A DNA stretch of 43,420 nucleotides, from sequence record OZ035819.1. One strand, written 5' to 3'. How positions within the stretch are numbered: position 1 is the first letter of the stretch; each line of letters starts with the position of its first letter. This DNA comes from Kagunavirus LM02P1. The position numbers were made by a program, and so were the translations under genes. The notes under the pieces were generated by a model that was given only the letters and a program-made list of their open reading frames with translations, made no database searches and had not been told where the DNA came from. This document shows positions 2,760 to 37,122 of this stretch, in pieces.

Positions 2760-2795
2760 GTTCACCTGTAGCCCCGAAAGGGGCTTTCTTATAGT

Positions 2796-3872
2796 ATGCT
2801 ATTAACTTTAGCGCCACAGGGTTTATTTATGAGCTTACTGACATCACTAATCAGCCACCAGATTTGGCTGCAACGCAACGCATCTGGCGAAGTGAAAGAC
2901 CTCGCACCGTTCATTCAGGAGATGCGGGATGAAATCAAACGGCAGGTGCTGTTGTTCGGCGACGACGGGAGAAGCACCGCGCGTCTCAATAAACTGTTAC
3001 GCGACTTAGAAGAAGCACTGACAGGGCTAGCCGGAGACTGGCAAACAAAGCTGACCGAAGACCTTAAGGAACTGGCAGCGTATGAGGCTGAGTGGAATGT
3101 GAAAACACTCACGGCTAACGTCAACGCTGAATTTGTTACCCCTACCGCTGAGCAGGTGTGGTCTGCAGCCGTGTTTCAACCGCTGGCGTTACGCGACAAG
3201 CCAGTTGATTTCACTAAGCTAATGGATGGCTGGGGTGAAACAGAAGTATCGCGACTGGTAACTGGTGTTAAGATGGGTTTCGTTCAAGGCCAAACCACAC
3301 GGCAGATTGTTAAAAATGTCGTTGGCGCTGGCGGACTGGCGGACATCTCTGAGCGCAACGCAGCTACGGTAACCCGCACCGCGCTGTCGCACATATCCAA
3401 CGAAGCACGCAACGAGACGTACCGTCAGAACGACGACATCATCGAGAAATATGAATGGGTATCGACGCTTGACAGCCGTACCAGTACGATTTGCAGAGCC
3501 AGGGACGGAATGACGTGGGAAATCGGTAAGGGGCCGATGCCCCCCGCCCATTTTGGCTGCCGAAGCACCACAGCACCTGTAATCAGTTCAGAATTCGACT
3601 TCCTCGATAAAGACGCAAAACGTGCAGCTAAGGGTGCGGACGGCGGAACTCAGGTAAGCGTGGACACCTCTTACTACGAGTTCCTAAAACAACAACCGGC
3701 ATGGTTTCAGGATGAAGCACTCGGTCCTGTTCGCGGTAAGATTTTCCGCAACAGCGGTATATCGCCGGAAGAGTTTCGCGTAATATCTGTAGATGGTTTC
3801 GGGAATCCGCTTACGCTTAAGCAGATGGCGGAACTCGATAAACGTGTTGCTGATTATCTGAAAGGGGAATAA
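2796..3872 (+). CDS. head morphogenesis protein (Mu F / SPP1 gp7-like minor capsid protein)
   Basis: 358 aa; conserved stretch WVSTLDSRTSTICRARDGMTWEI...PPAHFGCRS typical of this family; follows portal; alternative ATG at 2829. Confidence 0.75.
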   Translation: MLLTLAPQGLFMSLLTSLISHQIWLQRNASGEVKDLAPFIQEMRDEIKRQVLLFGDDGRSTARLNKLLRDLEEALTGLAGDWQTKLTEDLKELAAYEAEWNVKTLTANVNAEFVTPTAEQVWSAAVFQPLALRDKPVDFTKLMDGWGETEVSRLVTGVKMGFVQGQTTRQIVKNVVGAGGLADISERNAATVTRTALSHISNEARNETYRQNDDIIEKYEWVSTLDSRTSTICRARDGMTWEIGKGPMPPAHFGCRSTTAPVISSEFDFLDKDAKRAAKGADGGTQVSVDTSYYEFLKQQPAWFQDEALGPVRGKIFRNSGISPEEFRVISVDGFGNPLTLKQMAELDKRVADYLKGE

Positions 3873-4333: not shown

Positions 4334-4336
4334 TAA

Positions 4337-4365
4337 AAGGCCCCGTTATGGGGCCTTAGTTTTAT
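4337..4365. terminator. bidirectional intrinsic terminator
   Basis: GC hairpin AAGGCCCC-gttat-GGGGCCTT flanked by T-runs on both strands, between convergent genes 3872..4333 (+) and 4362..4655 (-). Confidence 0.6.
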
Positions 4366-4655
4366 TTCTTTCCTAATGCTTTCTTGATTGCTTTGCCGGC
4401 CAGATTTAACGGATGGTCTTCATGGCAATCATCAGAAGATACCGCGCAAACATCCTCAACGTAATCGCGAAGCTGGCGAAGTGCTTCAAGTAACTCTGGT
4501 GCCGAGGCGATAAGTTTTGCGTTAGCCAATTTTACTGAGTCCTTTTCCCTCATACTCATTACCTCCGCCACATAAACATCACCCGCCCAGATAGCCGTTC
4601 CGCGATTAACCCATGCACCGTCTGTACCTTTAAATTCGTGTGTCATTTTTTTCAT
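4362..4655 (-). CDS. hypothetical protein (antisense moron, 97 aa)
   Basis: ATG at 4655 with own promoter at 4676-4704 and terminator at 4337-4365; no motif recognised. Confidence 0.55.
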   Translation of the reverse strand: MKKMTHEFKGTDGAWVNRGTAIWAGDVYVAEVMSMREKDSVKLANAKLIASAPELLEALRQLRDYVEDVCAVSSDDCHEDHPLNLAGKAIKKALGKK

Positions 4656-4675
4656 CTCCTGTTCAAGTTAACTGA

Positions 4676-4704
4676 ATAGTACCCTATTATATTGGGGTGT
4701 GCAA
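4676..4704 (-). promoter_or_regulatory. sigma70-type promoter (TTGCAC-N17-TACTAT) for 4362..4655
   Basis: Read on minus strand; core 27 nt (4673-4699) identical to 13905-13931. Confidence 0.55.
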
Positions 4705-4770
4705 ACTATTTGTCTACGTATTCCAGTTATTCCGCTCAATTGTAAATGTTGGAATAAACTATTCGAATAG

Positions 4771-4799
4771 TTGACTTTTCACTGAAAATGTGCTAAGCT
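4771..4799 (+). promoter_or_regulatory. strong sigma70-type promoter TTGACT-N17-TAAGCT with TGn extended -10
   Basis: -35 at 4771-4776, -10 at 4794-4799 preceded by TGC; perfect palindrome CTATTCGAATAG at 4759-4770 abuts the -35. Confidence 0.55.
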
Positions 4800-4805
4800 C
4801 CACCT

Positions 4806-5006
4806 GAGCTTGTGAAGTATGAACAAGCGACCGCGGCGCGGGCAGGTAACGGAGCGGGACGTAAGTCCTGAGTGTAGTTACGCTGACGCGTTCGGAAGGG
4901 CCATACTCTATTGCTTGTGTAAAAAGTAGCTGGTTTACTGAGATTACGCCGTTTTTATGTTTAAATGATAAGGACTAGCGCCCCGCTTTATGGCGGGGCT
5001 TTACTT
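4806..5006 (+). ncRNA. candidate ~200-nt noncoding transcript (or leader) between promoter 4771 and terminator 4978
   Basis: GC-rich, stop-rich region bounded by a promoter and an intrinsic terminator; only coding option is a 36-codon ORF (4819..4929) without a clear RBS. Confidence 0.3.
4978..5006 (+). terminator. intrinsic terminator
   Basis: Hairpin CGCCCCGC-tttatg-GCGGGGC followed by TTTACTT, 18 nt upstream of the Rz ATG. Confidence 0.5.
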
Positions 5007-5023
5007 ATCGAGAAAGGAGAAAC

Positions 5024-5519: not shown

Positions 5520-5601
5520 TTGCCTTGCATGTTGGAATAATTTATTCTTGACATGTAAATCCGGGTGGCCCGGGTTCCAACGTCCAGGGGACATACTGAC
5601 T

Positions 5602-11909: not shown

Positions 11910-11935
11910 AAGGCCCCTTCCGGGGCCTTTTTCTT
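11910..11935. terminator. bidirectional intrinsic terminator
   Basis: Hairpin AGGCCCC-ttcc-GGGGCCT followed by TTTTCTT; same hairpin family recurs at 4337, 22745, 25394 and 28778. Confidence 0.65.
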
Positions 11936-12107
11936 ATTCCTTCAATTGCATAGGGTAGAAGTTAACGAGTTCTCCTTTATCCCGAAGCTGTGAACATTCA
12001 TCTAACGCGTCTTCCTGGCTACTTACGGCATAGATATCATCCCACTCGTCCCATTCTTTGTCGTATACACGGATTACATATATTGTTTTCATTATAGTCT
12101 TACTCAT
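11934..12107 (-). CDS. small acidic protein (57 aa)
   Basis: ATG at 12107 with AGGAG RBS; D/E-rich (EWDEWDD...EDALDE); last gene of antisense island. Confidence 0.4.
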   Translation of the reverse strand: MSKTIMKTIYVIRVYDKEWDEWDDIYAVSSQEDALDECSQLRDKGELVNFYPMQLKE

Positions 12108-12330
12108 CAATATTACTCCTGTACTCCCGTAACTTCTCCAGACTTTCAATTGCTTCTGCCAAGTCTGTTCCGGTGTCCTTGTGACCCCGCAAGCCCATAC
12201 ACAGCAGTTTCTTTAAAGCATGCTGTAACGCCGGGTCGCGGATATCGAAGGCGCGCAGCACATCATAAACGTCTACTGTCATAGTGCTGCCGTGAGTGTT
12301 TGTCATTGTGCGGTTGTATTTATTTGTCAC
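12100..12330 (-). CDS. small hypothetical protein (76 aa from GTG; internal ATGs possible)
   Basis: Minus-strand ORF with overlapping start/stop coupling to neighbours. Confidence 0.4.
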   Translation of the reverse strand: MTNKYNRTMTNTHGSTMTVDVYDVLRAFDIRDPALQHALKKLLCMGLRGHKDTGTDLAEAIESLEKLREYRSNIDE

Positions 12331-12520
12331 TGTTAACTCTCTTAAATCTGGCTATGCCTGACTCGTTAATGTTGCCTATTTCAAAGAAGCTGCGATATTT
12401 AGGCGAATACATTTTTACATCGCCATTCTCTAGGGTGACCCCTTCATATACAGCACCTACTTCGAATCCATTTTTCTCCGCGTACGGACTAACCTCGGTA
12501 CATTCATACATGTCTTTCAT
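12320..12520 (-). CDS. small hypothetical protein (66 aa)
   Basis: ATG at 12520 overlaps the stop of 12517..13647 (ATGA coupling). Confidence 0.45.
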   Translation of the reverse strand: MKDMYECTEVSPYAEKNGFEVGAVYEGVTLENGDVKMYSPKYRSFFEIGNINESGIARFKRVNSDK

Positions 12521-13647
12521 CCCAGCATCTCCGGTGAAATAGTTAAACGTGCGACCTCGCCATATTCGGCGCTATAAGTAATTACATTTGCACTGCGGCC
12601 TGACATCCATCCGCCGCGGGAGGCGTAGGCGTCTTTAGCCGCTAAGGTGCGGTGTTGCTCAACAACCATGTTACGGCTTTCTACAATCTTCTGATGGTGC
12701 AGGTGGCCCACGTGGGCGTAGCTATAGGCACTCTCACCGAACGCTTTGCGGAACTTGGCAATCATAACCGGTTCGATAGCGTCGAAGCGTGCTTTATGTC
12801 CGTGATGAAAGAACAGCGTAGTTTTGCCGTGTTGTACCATCTTGTAAACATCCGGCGACGTATCGACGAACACACGCGGCTCGTTGTCGTACAGCGTACT
12901 GAACATCTCGGCTAACCAAATCATACCCGATTCGTCGTGGTTCCCTTGCACGATAAGCAGTCGGACGTTTTTATGTTTAACCAGTGCCATATCAACAACA
13001 CGGCGAACCATACGAATCATGTAGCGTACAAGTTTCTGATAGCGTGTGTCCGCATCAAGAACATGACCACTCGCTGGCGTAACTGCGTCCAGACTATCGA
13101 AGTGCGCAAGGTCGCCGAGCAGGTTAATAACTCCTGTTCCCGCGTCCGGTGCTTTCTGAAACGCCGCGTCGAACCATCGGGAGAACAGGTCTTCAGCAAT
13201 CTTCATATCCCAGTCGTCGCCGCTTTCATCGGCCCAGGCCAGCATACCGAGATGGAAATCAGATACCGTGTAAAGATTAAGTAGCTTGTCGTCGCGTTTG
13301 GCTCGAGTCGCTTTAACAGGCGCAACCGGCGTAATCTCTGACTTCATACCTTCGATTACGGCTTTCATCAACTCGACCTGACGTTCGGCGTCGGTGTCAG
13401 TCTTAACCCATTGCAGTTTGGTGTTGCCGAACTCATCCACCAGTGACGACGTCCCCTTAATCTTGTAGCCGTCCGGCACAAGGTGACTAACGTCGCGCCC
13501 GTGGCCTACGCCTTTCTTTGCCAGCTTCGCTTTACGGATACGAATAACGCGGTCTGAGATGCCGTATTTACGGGCGATGTCTACATTCTTCATCCCGGCG
13601 TTCAATTCTTCCTGTAACTGCTCGTCGGTTATTTTCTTCTGGGCCAT
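12517..13647 (-). CDS. HTH domain fused to calcineurin-like metallophosphoesterase (SbcD/Mre11-like or phosphodiesterase-like)
   Basis: 376 aa; N-terminal HTH NVDIARKYGISDRVIRIRKAKL; full metallophosphatase motif set SDFHLG, GDLAHFD, GNHDE, HHGH, GHLHH; RBS GAGGAAG. Confidence 0.7.
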   Translation of the reverse strand: MAQKKITDEQLQEELNAGMKNVDIARKYGISDRVIRIRKAKLAKKGVGHGRDVSHLVPDGYKIKGTSSLVDEFGNTKLQWVKTDTDAERQVELMKAVIEGMKSEITPVAPVKATRAKRDDKLLNLYTVSDFHLGMLAWADESGDDWDMKIAEDLFSRWFDAAFQKAPDAGTGVINLLGDLAHFDSLDAVTPASGHVLDADTRYQKLVRYMIRMVRRVVDMALVKHKNVRLLIVQGNHDESGMIWLAEMFSTLYDNEPRVFVDTSPDVYKMVQHGKTTLFFHHGHKARFDAIEPVMIAKFRKAFGESAYSYAHVGHLHHQKIVESRNMVVEQHRTLAAKDAYASRGGWMSGRSANVITYSAEYGEVARLTISPEMLG

Positions 13648-13685
13648 GCTTACTTCCTCGTGTTTAGGATTTGTCCTATACTAGC

Positions 13686-13892
13686 TCACTTCTCTTTGAC
13701 ATTCGAGTTGCACGCCCAGATTAAAATAAATACCCACGGCAGCAGAACCCAGCCAAGAAACAGATTAGCCATGAATATCGCTAATTTCGCTTTATGGTCG
13801 CGGAAATATGCAACCAGAAACGGCGCGAAATAAGCGAGCAGTGCAAACAGAATTAAGGAAACTGGTAAACTTGACATTTTAAACCCCTTCAT
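13686..13892 (-). CDS. small 2-TM membrane protein, superinfection-immunity (Imm)-like
   Basis: 68 aa; two hydrophobic helices around YFAPFLVAYFRDHKAKLAIFMANLFLGWVLLPWVFILIWA, matching the Imm-type signature as I recall it; first gene after promoter. Confidence 0.5.
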   Translation of the reverse strand: MKGFKMSSLPVSLILFALLAYFAPFLVAYFRDHKAKLAIFMANLFLGWVLLPWVFILIWACNSNVKEK

Positions 13893-13907
13893 TGTTGGTG
13901 TAAGTGA

Positions 13908-13936
13908 ATAGTACCCTATTATATTGGGGTGCGCAA
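13908..13936 (-). promoter_or_regulatory. sigma70-type promoter (TTGCGC-N17-TACTAT) for the antisense island
   Basis: Spacer identical to promoter at 4676-4704; sits 16 nt upstream of the ATG at 13892. Confidence 0.55.
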
Positions 13937-22744: not shown

Positions 22745-22768
22745 AAGGCCCCAAACGGGGCCTTTTCT
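22745..22768. terminator. bidirectional intrinsic terminator between convergent late (+) and replication (-) transcription
   Basis: Hairpin AAGGCCCC-aaac-GGGGCCTT followed by TTCTC. Confidence 0.65.
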
Positions 22769-25668: not shown

Positions 25669-25983
25669 TTATAATTCCTTATATTGTTGGGGTATGTGCT
25701 TACTATAATAGTCTGCTATTAGGGTGTCAATCTGTTTTATCGAACCAACGACAAAAACATTTGCGCCACGTTTGCGCATCCGCTCATGCTCACGTAGCTG
25801 GTGGGGGTCAGGCTTCGTGTTTTCGTCTTTCTTAACCTCGACGAACCAGACGACGCCGCCGGGGAGAATTGCCAGCAGGTCGGGGGCGCCGGAACGCCCC
25901 TCGTAGGAAAGTTTACGAACGAGGCCACCAAGGGCCTCGAATCGCTCCTTTGCATATTTCTGTATTTTGCCTTCCGGGGTCAT
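25669..25983 (-). CDS. VRR-NUC domain nuclease (PD-(D/E)XK fold)
   Basis: Motif GAPDLLAILPGGVVWFVEVK (D...E-V-K core); ATG at 25983 preferred over upstream TTG at 25998. Confidence 0.65.
   Translation of the reverse strand: MTPEGKIQKYAKERFEALGGLVRKLSYEGRSGAPDLLAILPGGVVWFVEVKKDENTKPDPHQLREHERMRKRGANVFVVGSIKQIDTLIADYYSKHIPQQYKEL
25702..25730 (-). promoter_or_regulatory. sigma70-type promoter TTGACA-N17-TATAGT inside the 3' end of the VRR-NUC gene
   Basis: Near-consensus hexamers read on minus strand; would drive 25413..25667 and downstream genes. Confidence 0.5.
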
Positions 25984-29499: not shown

Positions 29500-29528
29500 A
29501 ATATAATAGCTAACTATTCAGGTGTCAA
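29500..29528 (-). promoter_or_regulatory. sigma70-type promoter TTGACA-N17-TATATT for SSB gene
   Basis: Near-consensus hexamers read on minus strand, ~50 nt upstream of the ATG at 29447. Confidence 0.6.
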
Positions 29529-32348: not shown

Positions 32349-32378
32349 ACTATAATAGCTAACTATTCATGATGTCAA
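32349..32378 (-). promoter_or_regulatory. sigma70-type promoter TTGACA-N18-TATAGT for 31805..32317
   Basis: Read on minus strand; leader 32318-32348 shares 15-nt AAACGAGAGGAGAGA with the leader at 37094-37122. Confidence 0.5.
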
Positions 32379-32442
32379 TGGGCTTTTCTAAAATAATTAA
32401 TATGGTACTATTCACATATCAACTAACTAAGGAGTAATTGAC

Positions 32443-32658
32443 ATGCAACCATCTGAACTAGGCATCCGTGTAGAGCAACGCCGCAAAGAACTCGGCATCT
32501 CCCAGCGCCGTCTGGCTGTCCTGGCCGGTGTTTCTCAGGGAGCGATTAACCAGCTGGCACTTGGAGTAACTCAGGACGTCCGACCGGCGACGCTGTTTAA
32601 ACTGGCGGAAGTGCTGGAAGTAGACGCCAAGTGGCTGGCGTTCGGTGAAGGGGCTTAA
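32443..32658 (+). CDS. XRE-family helix-turn-helix transcriptional regulator
   Basis: 71 aa; HTH LGISQRRLAVLAGVSQGAINQLALG; RBS AAGGAG; only + strand gene inside the - strand replication module. Confidence 0.7.
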   Translation: MQPSELGIRVEQRRKELGISQRRLAVLAGVSQGAINQLALGVTQDVRPATLFKLAEVLEVDAKWLAFGEGA

Positions 32659-32673
32659 CGCCCCTTTCTTTTT
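32648..32673. terminator. bidirectional intrinsic terminator
   Basis: Hairpin AGGGGC-ttaac-GCCCCT followed by TTCTTTTT; overlaps XRE stop; primase stop at 32676. Confidence 0.6.
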
Positions 32674-35476: not shown

Positions 35477-35505
35477 ACTATAACACCTACAATAGCCAAA
35501 CACAA
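35477..35505 (-). promoter_or_regulatory. sigma70-type promoter TTGTGT-N17-TATAGT for leftward replication operon
   Basis: Hexamers with 17-nt spacer read on minus strand upstream of 35447. Confidence 0.45.
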
Positions 35506-35868
35506 CCTATTGACAAAATAAAATGTAGCTGTAAAATCAACGTATCGAAGAGCTTTAGTTCAGAATTACTTAGAAACAATATTCTTAAGTCTCGGGTACT
35601 TAAAGCCCCGCCCTAAAGCGGGGCGCTAAATAGTACTCTTGGTAACGTTAGTATCTAAGTTTCCTCAAAGTAACAGCAAGTGGCAAGAAAGCCCCCGTCT
35701 ATTTAAATTTTACCCTCCTACATAAGCCACTGATAATTAAAAGTTTCTATAGATGCCGTAAGCAAGGTAGAGAGTACTTCACTCCGCTGGGGTGGGCTAA
35801 CGCCCACCCACTGCGTTGCGTACTCTTTTAAGAAACGAAAGAATCACAACGGCAACGTAACTATTCTC

Positions 35869-35897
35869 TTGCACGCCCCAACATAATAGGATACTAT
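35869..35897 (+). promoter_or_regulatory. sigma70-type early promoter TTGCAC-N17-TACTAT
   Basis: Same architecture as 37065-37093, 4676-4704 and 13908-13936; followed by conserved leader TTATCGAAACGAGA. Confidence 0.55.
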
Positions 35898-35931
35898 TCA
35901 CTTATCGAAACGAGACAGAGGAGTGAGGGTT

Positions 35932-36607: not shown

Positions 36608-36769
36608 ATGAGAGAAGCATCCGAACGGTGGGCCGTCGTCGAAGGGCTGCCCGTTAACAAGGGTTCAAAGAAAGAGTACCTGAACGTTAAGACGCGTCTC
36701 GCGTGGCGGGCGTGGAAAGCTGGTGTGCAGTTCCGTGCTGGTATAACAGGTGGGGTGACAGGTCAATAG
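36608..36769 (+). CDS. small basic protein (53 aa)
   Basis: ATG at 36608 with RBS AAGGA; below ORF-track cutoff. Confidence 0.35.
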   Translation: MREASERWAVVEGLPVNKGSKKEYLNVKTRLAWRAWKAGVQFRAGITGGVTGQ

Positions 36770-36792
36770 CTTACTATTTTACTGAGTGACTT

Positions 36793-37057: not shown

Positions 37058-37064
37058 AATTTAC

Positions 37065-37093
37065 TTGCACACACAGATATAATAGACTACTAT
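37065..37093 (+). promoter_or_regulatory. sigma70-type promoter TTGCAC-N17-TACTAT
   Basis: Same architecture as 35869-35897; followed by leader TTATCGAAACGAGAGGAGAGAGAAG. Confidence 0.55.
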
Positions 37094-37122
37094 TCAGTTA
37101 TCGAAACGAGAGGAGAGAGAAG

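Follow-up and report, generated by a model that had tools for sequence, protein, structure and literature searches.

A portable minus-strand gene cassette with standardised regulatory ends and a candidate Cro-like regulator in a Kagunavirus-type phage

The stretch of Kagunavirus LM02P1 DNA analysed here (sequence record OZ035819.1; 43,420 nt, hereafter the window) carries at positions 4334-4706 a single gene that runs on the minus strand between the Hoc-like decoration gene and the spanin genes of the plus-strand late gene block. Judged from its sequence, this unit is a portable promoter-gene-terminator cassette, structurally a moron with standardised and reused regulatory ends. This status is based on the presence of the same unit in phage EF2-1 as an insert between otherwise adjoining genes, on a cross-site homology that is bounded by the ends of the unit, and on its lower GC content. 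The interpretation that we favour, with a probability of about 0.6, is that of a self-contained and exchangeable minus-strand expression cassette, whose early promoter would be regulated through a short dyad and shut off by a Cro-like protein, and whose product would be an accessory early protein.

The first 25 kb of the window, including the 4337-4704 region, showed ~90% nucleotide identity to Kagunavirus phages (Snoke, hz69, K1G and others). Kagunavirus belongs to the Guernseyvirinae, siphoviruses of E. coli, a subfamily described as lytic in the literature, and no integrase was noticed among the genes annotated in the window. The genome that hosts the cassette is thus a virulent Kagunavirus-type siphophage. 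Since the phage is virulent, the term moron, already applied to the unit in a first-pass annotation of this DNA, holds in its structural sense and not in the sense of lysogenic conversion; the portability of the unit between sites had been overlooked there.

Anatomy of the 4334-4706 cassette

The cassette comprises the following features:

4334..4706, minus strand: whole cassette, the unit held in common with the EF2-1 copy at a different site, as delimited by alignment
4337..4357, both strands: two-way intrinsic terminator, AAGGCCCC-loop-GGGGCCTT, with T-runs on either strand
4362..4646, minus strand: coding sequence of 94 amino acids (aa), matching PHROG_1273 and with close homologs in PF27050
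4362..4655, minus strand: the same frame from the alternative upstream start ATG 4655, which yields 97 aa
4656..4660, minus strand: Shine-Dalgarno sequence AGGAG, read from the sequence, 9 nt before ATG 4646
4676..4681, minus strand: predicted -10 hexamer TACTAT, 17 bp from TTGCAC in four of the four class-A promoter copies defined below
4675..4688, no strand assigned: putative operator, the 14-bp dyad AATAG-N4-CTATT, overlapping the -10 hexamer
4699..4704, minus strand: predicted -35 hexamer TTGCAC, from the sequence and the repeat alignment

The leader between the promoter and the 94-aa gene is ~25 nt long and carries the AGGAG sequence (4660..4656), which directly abuts the first ATG (4655) and is separated by 9 nt from the second one (4646). 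Close homologs of the protein are 94 aa long and start at the methionine equivalent to ATG 4646. Moreover, in related phages the same leader, AGGAGATGAAAAATG, precedes unrelated cargo genes, for which the annotators used the second ATG. Because of this spacing, these homologs and this use of the second ATG, the gene most likely corresponds to 4362..4646 and encodes 94 aa. A gene of 97 aa (4362..4655) had been proposed initially; its minus-strand open reading frame (ORF) is indeed present, and its start likely lies 9 nt further in.

Analysis of the 4337-4357 region by a terminator scan revealed terminator-like sequences on both strands, with predicted folding energies of -17.7 kcal/mol on the plus strand and -16.5 kcal/mol on the minus strand (z of ~-3.4 and ~-3.3, respectively), and the annotators of phage Snoke independently placed terminators on both strands at the homologous spot. 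These data agree with the bidirectional terminator of the first-pass annotation and, together with the minus-strand gene and its own promoter-like site, with the autonomous unit directed against the structural genes that it had described. An extended form of the terminator sequence, ATAAAACTAAGGCCCC..GGGGCCTTTT, was also found at 11910-11929 and 22745-22764, which are the other two points of plus/minus gene convergence. The copy at 4337-4357 is inverted relative to these two, from which it follows that its strong direction serves the cargo gene. In addition, the GC content is 0.40-0.46 across 4350-4800 as compared with 0.51-0.56 in the flanks, and the GC skew is inverted.

Read on the minus strand, the predicted promoter consists of TTGCAC, a 17-bp spacer and TACTAT, followed by TCA. 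The TATAAT sequence present in the 4686-4691 region was considered as an alternative -10 hexamer and discarded: no -35 sequence lies 16-18 bp from it in the 4673 copy, and it mutates in relatives.

The promoter family, its dyad and a candidate repressor

The sequence at 4673-4699 is identical over 27 nt to that at 13905-13931, exactly as had been noted at first, and the repeat extends with 2 mismatches to 36 nt (4669-4704 vs 13901-13936), far beyond chance. Co-regulation of the two antisense units, which had been deduced from this shared promoter, is a reasonable inference. The relationship is nevertheless broader than a duplication, as the cassette promoter is one of eight sites in the window that bear the putative operator. 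The dyad AATAG-N4-CTATT occurs in 8 exact copies vs 0.05 expected, and the longer form ATAATAG-N4-CTATTCA in 6 exact copies, or in 10 vs 0.15 expected when up to 2 mismatches are allowed. When different half-site spacings were compared, enrichment was observed only at 4. Furthermore, exact copies of the dyad (8) outnumber those with one mismatch (5), the opposite of what is expected by chance; 11 copies have two mismatches.

Seven of the eight exact dyads overlap predicted promoters, which fall into two classes. Class A, with the TTGCAC-17-TACTAT geometry, comprises four sites, at 4673 and 13905 on the minus strand and at 35883 and 37079 on the plus strand. Class B comprises three minus-strand sites (25705, 29503 and 32352) of near-consensus sequence, TTGACA-17/18-TATAGT or TATATT, in which the dyad lies in the spacer; they are located upstream of the methyltransferase gene, the single-stranded DNA (ssDNA)-binding gene and a replication-block gene of unknown function. 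The distribution of these elements, along with the gene blocks in which they lie, is as follows:

up to ~22.5 kb, plus strand: terminase, portal, head morphogenesis, Hoc-like decoration, spanins, scaffold, capsid, tail and tailspike
23-35.5 kb, minus strand: DNA replication block, with helicase, methyltransferase, polymerase, Gp2.5-like ssDNA-binding/annealing protein, exonuclease, HNH endonuclease and primase-helicase
right arm, plus strand: small genes and lysis genes
13901..13936, minus strand: second promoter copy, TTGCGC-17-TACTAT, dyad at 13907-13920; heads the five-gene tail island 11934..13877
35863..35915, plus strand: class-A promoter at the head of the right arm, dyad at 35885-35898
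37059..37111, plus strand: class-A promoter, dyad at 37081-37094
29505..29518, no strand assigned: class-B dyad in the minus-strand TTGACA-17-TATATT promoter upstream of the ssDNA-binding/annealing gene
25707-25720 and 32354-32367: further class-B dyads
36765-36778: eighth dyad, without a clear promoter
32443..32658, plus strand: 71-aa HTH_3 protein, 434-Cro-like, candidate dyad binder

The dyad was also present in Jerseyvirus S100, a phage of a different genus, in five exact copies located at the corresponding promoters and with differing N4 sequences. To survey the promoter more widely, IMG/VR was scanned with its 23-nt core, and the 38 stretches obtained were combined with GenBank loci. As this survey is biased towards the exact core, it was repeated with the conserved leader as anchor, which yielded a set of 13 distinct Guernseyvirinae promoters. 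Within this set the half-sites AATAG and CTATT never vary, in contrast with the 3' half of the -35 hexamer, the spacer, the TATAAT-like stretch and the N4 sequence, all of which do. The TATAAT stretch is often CATAAT and once AAAAT in relatives, and (T/C)ACTAT is kept. This pattern of variation speaks for (T/C)ACTAT as the -10 hexamer and for a constraint on the dyad that goes further than the needs of the sigma70 hexamers.

A candidate for the protein that recognises the dyad is encoded by a single plus-strand gene (32443..32658) running against the minus-strand replication block. Upstream of this gene lie an exact dyad, at 32354, and a one-mismatch dyad, at 32399. The 71-aa product contains an HTH_3 domain (E 2.3e-12), and its best relative of solved structure is 434 Cro (E 5.4e-7), to which it aligns over residues 6-68, almost its full length. 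The protein was found at >=80% coverage in 453 phage records, overwhelmingly of Salmonella and Escherichia phages, and the start of the recognition helix (AGVSQ) is kept between the homologs of the window and S100. The operators of phage 434 likewise measure 14 bp and are dyads in which the outer bases are conserved and the centre varies. On the grounds of this homology, the adjoining dyads, their conservation and the geometry of the 434 operators, the Cro-like protein likely binds the dyads. As in the case of 434 Cro, the candidate 14-bp sites overlap predicted promoters, including one upstream of the gene of the regulator itself. On the other hand, phage 434 has a CI partner and an immunity region, of which no equivalents were seen in this virulent phage; its two tripartite operators are replaced here by eight dispersed sites, and the half-site is AATAG instead of ACAA. 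The Cro-like gene ends in its own hairpin (~32650-32672) just before the 3' end of the primase-helicase gene, a layout that resembles that of the 4334-4706 cassette.

The main alternative is that the unit is a plain moron with an unregulated host-type promoter, in which the dyad would simply result from AT-rich -10-like sequence or from recent copying between cassettes, with no phage repressor being involved. Indeed, the right half-site supplies the -10 hexamer TACTAT and the left half overlaps TATAAT, and the promoters of the three cassette sites described below are nearly identical, as recent copies could be. We consider this explanation unlikely, given that the dyad is found in a different register and on the other strand inside TTGACA-type promoters, that it is retained with a different N4 in Jerseyvirus, that only the spacing of 4 is enriched, that TATAAT mutates and AATAG does not, and that a widely conserved 434-Cro-like protein is encoded beside two of the dyads.

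According to the regulated-cassette interpretation, and to judge from the promoter sequences and the genes located behind them, host RNA polymerase would fire the dyad-bearing promoters on phage entry. The 94-aa protein would then be produced at the same time as the replication proteins and the products of other early genes, from a transcript that runs counter to the structural genes; the orientation of the cassette and its two-way terminator would keep its transcription off those genes and would also halt upstream late transcripts at that point. As the Cro-like protein accumulates, it would occupy the dyads over the -10 hexamer or the spacer and so close the whole set of promoters.

Several observations weigh against this interpretation. 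The cassette promoter is not called by a TTGACA/TATAAT sigma70 scan, TTGCAC coinciding with TTGACA at 3 of 6 positions, and the overlap of the half-sites with -10-like sequence implies that part of the dyad conservation could be due to promoter constraint alone. The Hoc|spanin site was occupied in every relative seen, if not by this gene then by alternative cargo, so that insertion at this site is deduced from the portal site (see below). Finally, RNA sequencing of vB_Eco_K1B4, the sole Kagunavirus study of this kind found, placed in the 'late' class a superinfection-immunity gene that we regard as corresponding to the one behind the 13905 promoter, and this class does not fit early expression followed by shut-off. 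It has to be noted that the time classes of that study are coarse, covering 5-120 min with only 4 'early' genes, and that its supplement calls no gene in the Hoc site.

The K1B4 result would be better accommodated if the promoters were activated or delayed by the HTH protein or by another phage factor, the cassette carrying a middle or late accessory gene. The weak class-A -35 hexamer (TTGCAC) and the lack of a good -35 sequence in the promoter of the Cro-like gene point in the same direction. We regard this possibility as distinctly improbable, since a dyad over the -10 hexamer or spacer is in the usual position for repression, the class-B promoters, being near-consensus sigma70 promoters, should fire unaided and precede replication genes, and the K1B4 classes are coarse and lack an annotated gene at the Hoc site.

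The tail island behind the 13905 promoter starts with a gene for a small membrane protein of 63 aa, whose superinfection-immunity label comes from the annotation of another phage and from a reading of its sequence. Three alternatives occur in relatives as the first gene of the island: that of the 63-aa small membrane protein, one for a secreted protein of 108 aa and one for a membrane protein of 97 aa. The distal genes also vary (HAD-like phosphatase plus 184-aa P-loop protein, HNH/AP2 endonuclease, small ORFs), and the constant member is a protein of 376 aa whose N-terminus is HTH-like and whose body resembles a metallophosphatase/exonuclease (window 11934-13892 and loci of relatives).

Exchange of cargo genes among three docking sites

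In phage EF2-1 (PQ571290.1) the 94-aa cassette is located between the portal and head-morphogenesis genes. Alignment with the window revealed ~92% identity from the terminator to just past the -35 box, with unrelated flanks. The portal and head-morphogenesis genes adjoin without interruption, at a distance of only ~70 nt, in the window as well as in 107 of the 492 records that matched. The EF2-1 gene is thus inserted between otherwise adjacent genes. Conversely, the Hoc|spanin site of relatives harbours other minus-strand cargo behind the same promoter, leader and terminator, such as a truncated sliding-clamp-like protein (Snoke and others), a DpnA-type methylase plus a hypothetical protein (ER23, S100), and proteins of 67 aa and 55 aa.

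The promoter-core survey comprised 46 instances, or 48 with the two of the window, and all 48 fall in three sites: portal|head-morphogenesis, Hoc|spanin and the tail island. Every complete unit examined in relatives ends in a GGCCCC-loop-GGGGCC hairpin. Clustering of the cargo resulted in at least nine families at the Hoc site and seven at the portal site, almost all of them without assigned function, and single genomes bear different cargo at each site. Three families (94 aa, 173-aa clamp-like and 57 aa) were found at both the Hoc and portal sites. Their cross-site copies are 88-92% identical, only from the -35 box to the terminator, the flanks being unrelated, so that the differences among relatives are bounded by the repeats themselves.

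These data bear on the idea that the promoter and terminator are permanent regulatory elements of three ancient sites instead of carriers of mobility, and that the cargo shared between sites results from old duplications followed by differential loss. The maintenance of orientation and position of the three sites across Kagunavirus and Jerseyvirus would suit this idea. It is nonetheless very improbable, because the cross-site identity stops exactly at the -35 box and terminator in three unrelated cargo families, cargo differs between sites within single genomes, the portal site is uninterrupted in many relatives, and the cargo repertoire is large and patchy. The likely mechanism would be cassette exchange by homologous recombination in the shared ends (promoter, ~35 nt; terminator, ~30 nt), either as a double crossover or as gene conversion; the Gp2.5-like annealing protein and the exonuclease encoded by the phage could support this process.

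The uninterrupted portal junction of the window (2760-2829) contains a hairpin, AGCCCCGAAAGGGGCT (2770-2785), followed four bases on by TATAGTATGCTATT, a dyad with one mismatch. The hairpin and degenerate dyad (2770-2803) may be a relic of a cassette or a docking site for it. The ORF start at 2796 is probably wrong, as ATG 2830 (MSLLTS...) fits the relatives.

Morons, as conceived by Juhala, Hendrix and co-workers for lambdoid and HK97-like phages, are extra genes with their own promoter and terminator and deviant base composition, located between otherwise adjacent genes. The cassette shares with them a single extra gene, its own predicted promoter and terminator and a base composition unlike that of its neighbours. 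It differs from them in that its phage is virulent, which leaves no room for prophage expression or lysogenic conversion, in that its promoter is of a repeated, operator-bearing type belonging to the phage itself instead of an unrelated one, and in that the same regulatory ends are reused at three sites, with cargo being swapped and not simply added.

Searches of the literature retrieved no description of these promoters or cassettes in Kagunavirus or the Guernseyvirinae. The closest described system is the promoter-early stem-loop (PeSL) cassette of T4-type phages. The variable regions of these phages contain ORFan genes bordered by repeated sigma70-like promoters plus stem-loop terminators (Arbiol et al. 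2010, PMC2839356; Comeau et al. 2014, PMC4122927). Recombination between PeSL repeats explains insertions, deletions and replacements between close relatives, the terminators keep early transcription out of virion genes, and a palindrome lies between or over the promoter hexamers (PMC2839356; PMC4122927). The cassette resembles PeSLs in its repeated sigma70-like promoter tied to variable ORFan genes, in the palindrome over the promoter hexamers and in the terminators that would insulate virion genes. Unlike the compact PeSL motif of promoter plus stem-loop, the cassette has its promoter and terminator ~320 nt apart, at opposite ends of the cargo; the only hairpin that abuts a degenerate dyad, as in the compact motif, is that of the uninterrupted portal junction. 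PeSLs amount to ~50 per genome in myoviruses, whereas this 43-kb siphovirus has only three docking sites, all of them within its late gene block. Moreover, the cassette units are antisense to their surroundings, and their promoter palindrome is a short AT-rich dyad resembling a protein operator, in contrast with the G/C stem of PeSLs.

The 94-aa protein and its family

The first-pass annotation had found no recognisable motif in the cassette protein, a view that has to be revised. The protein matches PHROG_1273 over the full length (E 2.2e-17, residues 4-96), and PF27050 (Phage_P22_Y8K6) is precomputed on 108 of 108 homologs, including 96%-identical ones; homologs that are 82-96% identical to the 94-aa protein carry this domain. 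A profile search retrieved 13,358 cluster representatives at E <= 1e-3, nearly all of them stand-alone proteins of 90-120 aa. The window protein shares the family motifs, namely MxEFKGTxGxW at the N-terminus, NAxLIAAAPELLEAL in the middle and a final AIxKALG. The region between the first two motifs is swapped wholesale, with insertions and deletions, among members. Searches of the 94-aa protein against a copy of Pfam without the PF27050 model gave no matches, either for the protein itself or for 36 remote relatives. Likewise, there were no matches in NCBIfam or PADLOC, and nothing significant in PDB by sequence or profile.

Within the subfamily of the window protein, the C-terminal 50 residues are almost invariant and the region of the third helix (RQLRDYVEDVCAVSSDDCHEDHPL) is unusually conserved, in contrast with the central beta region, which is exchanged as a whole between members. 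Comparison of the C-terminal 50 codons resulted in synonymous:non-synonymous differences of 17:4, 10:2 and 12:4 in three comparisons, and the synonymous excess holds even against copies in T1-like phages with unrelated flanks, which indicates selection on the protein and not recent transfer of DNA. Conservation of the ORF in related phages, named in advance as a check on the gene, is thus confirmed. Although its head-on orientation to the late genes and short length would suit a non-coding antisense RNA interfering with late transcription, with the ORF being incidental, such a function is scarcely credible in view of this strong purifying selection on the protein, the >13,000 family representatives in many contexts and orientations, the well-placed ribosome-binding site and the terminator that bounds the transcript before the Hoc-like gene.

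An AlphaFold2 model of the protein (mean pLDDT 84.6) predicted with confidence a small fold made up of a three-strand meander and three helices. This fold matched nothing significantly in the PDB or in BFVD, and a Foldseek search against the latter returned only uncharacterised phage proteins (best E 9e-3). A zinc site, C-x6-CH-x2-H, was considered and dropped, as the cysteines vary across the family. A diversity-generating retroelement behind the variable centre was also dropped: the variants are large insertions and deletions, and no reverse transcriptase was seen among the annotated ORFs.

In T1-like phages the PF27050 gene opens a plus-strand block that includes ParB-like and clamp-like genes; in lambdoid contigs it lies between kil and gam/recT or erf; and in three other contigs sampled it is first or second in a small-gene block facing away from the lysis or structural genes. 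Such gene contexts suggest that the protein has an accessory role early in infection. It may provide a function related to host takeover, counter-defence or recombination, and would be dispensable for virion assembly. In one T1-like locus (L048 of IMG/VR, matching phage swi2, 2983-5268), the PF27050 gene, a 179-aa clamp-like gene and a ParB-like gene lie in one plus-strand block. Homologs of the PF27050 and clamp-like genes are alternative cargo of one cassette site in Kagunavirus.

Taken further, it is possible, as a tentative extension, that a subfamily-wide 'plug-and-play' system exists, with three docking sites for cassettes loaded with early ORFan genes, one Cro-like repressor acting on all of them through the 14-bp operator and shuffling by recombination at the shared ends, and with PF27050 as a two-part effector whose replaceable beta region would set its specificity. 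If so, the targets of PF27050 could be, for example, host defence or DNA-metabolism proteins. The family has >13,000 cluster representatives, and its frequent placement at the head of early-looking small-gene blocks, or close to it, makes it a candidate source of host-takeover or counter-defence factors. In such a system a small virulent siphophage would keep a fast-evolving accessory repertoire without disturbing its late gene block, its standardised regulatory ends doubling as expression signals and recombination handles. The eight putative operators and the one Cro-like protein constitute a concrete, testable regulon. Furthermore, Guernseyvirinae are widely used for biocontrol and therapy against Salmonella and E. 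coli, and the three sites would be natural landing pads, with a ready promoter and terminator, for payload engineering in Kagunavirus and Jerseyvirus.

Other features were observed around the cassette and the putative operators. On the plus strand just beyond the cassette there is a perfect 16-bp palindrome, AACTATTCGAATAGTT (4757-4772), in which the GAATAG half-site is used again, arranged the other way round, and which abuts a promoter-like site, TTGACT-17-TAAGCT. This site is followed by a leader of ~180 nt and by a strong intrinsic terminator (4980-4999) right before the spanin gene (5024). Snoke is annotated with a 36-aa coding sequence in this region (4746-5023), which had no Rfam matches; Rfam and tRNA scans of the entire window also gave none. 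The region could serve the late genes downstream as a regulated restart point or as an attenuator, and transcription towards the spanin genes may resume from the plus-strand promoter-like site (4770-4798). Two copies of the 12-mer ATGTTGGAATAA, each with TTATTC and TTGAC behind it, are located at 4746 and at 5529. The second is upstream of the scaffold gene, and both precede plus-strand late genes; the 12-mer was set aside as a repeat family, two copies not being significant by themselves.

The HTH_17 gene, which runs leftward, is separated by ~400 nt (35478-35883) from the class-A promoter that heads the right arm and is directed rightward. In this gap we found a TTGACA-16-TAAAAT sequence on the plus strand (~35512-35539), a G/C hairpin (~35604-35627) and an AATAG-N11-CTATT arrangement at 35491; the region could be a short transcript or an origin-like region. 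Finally, the EF2-1 homolog of the cassette protein, gp32 (PQ571290.1), is labelled 'Efflux RND transporter permease subunit', which for a soluble protein of 94 aa is almost certainly mistaken.

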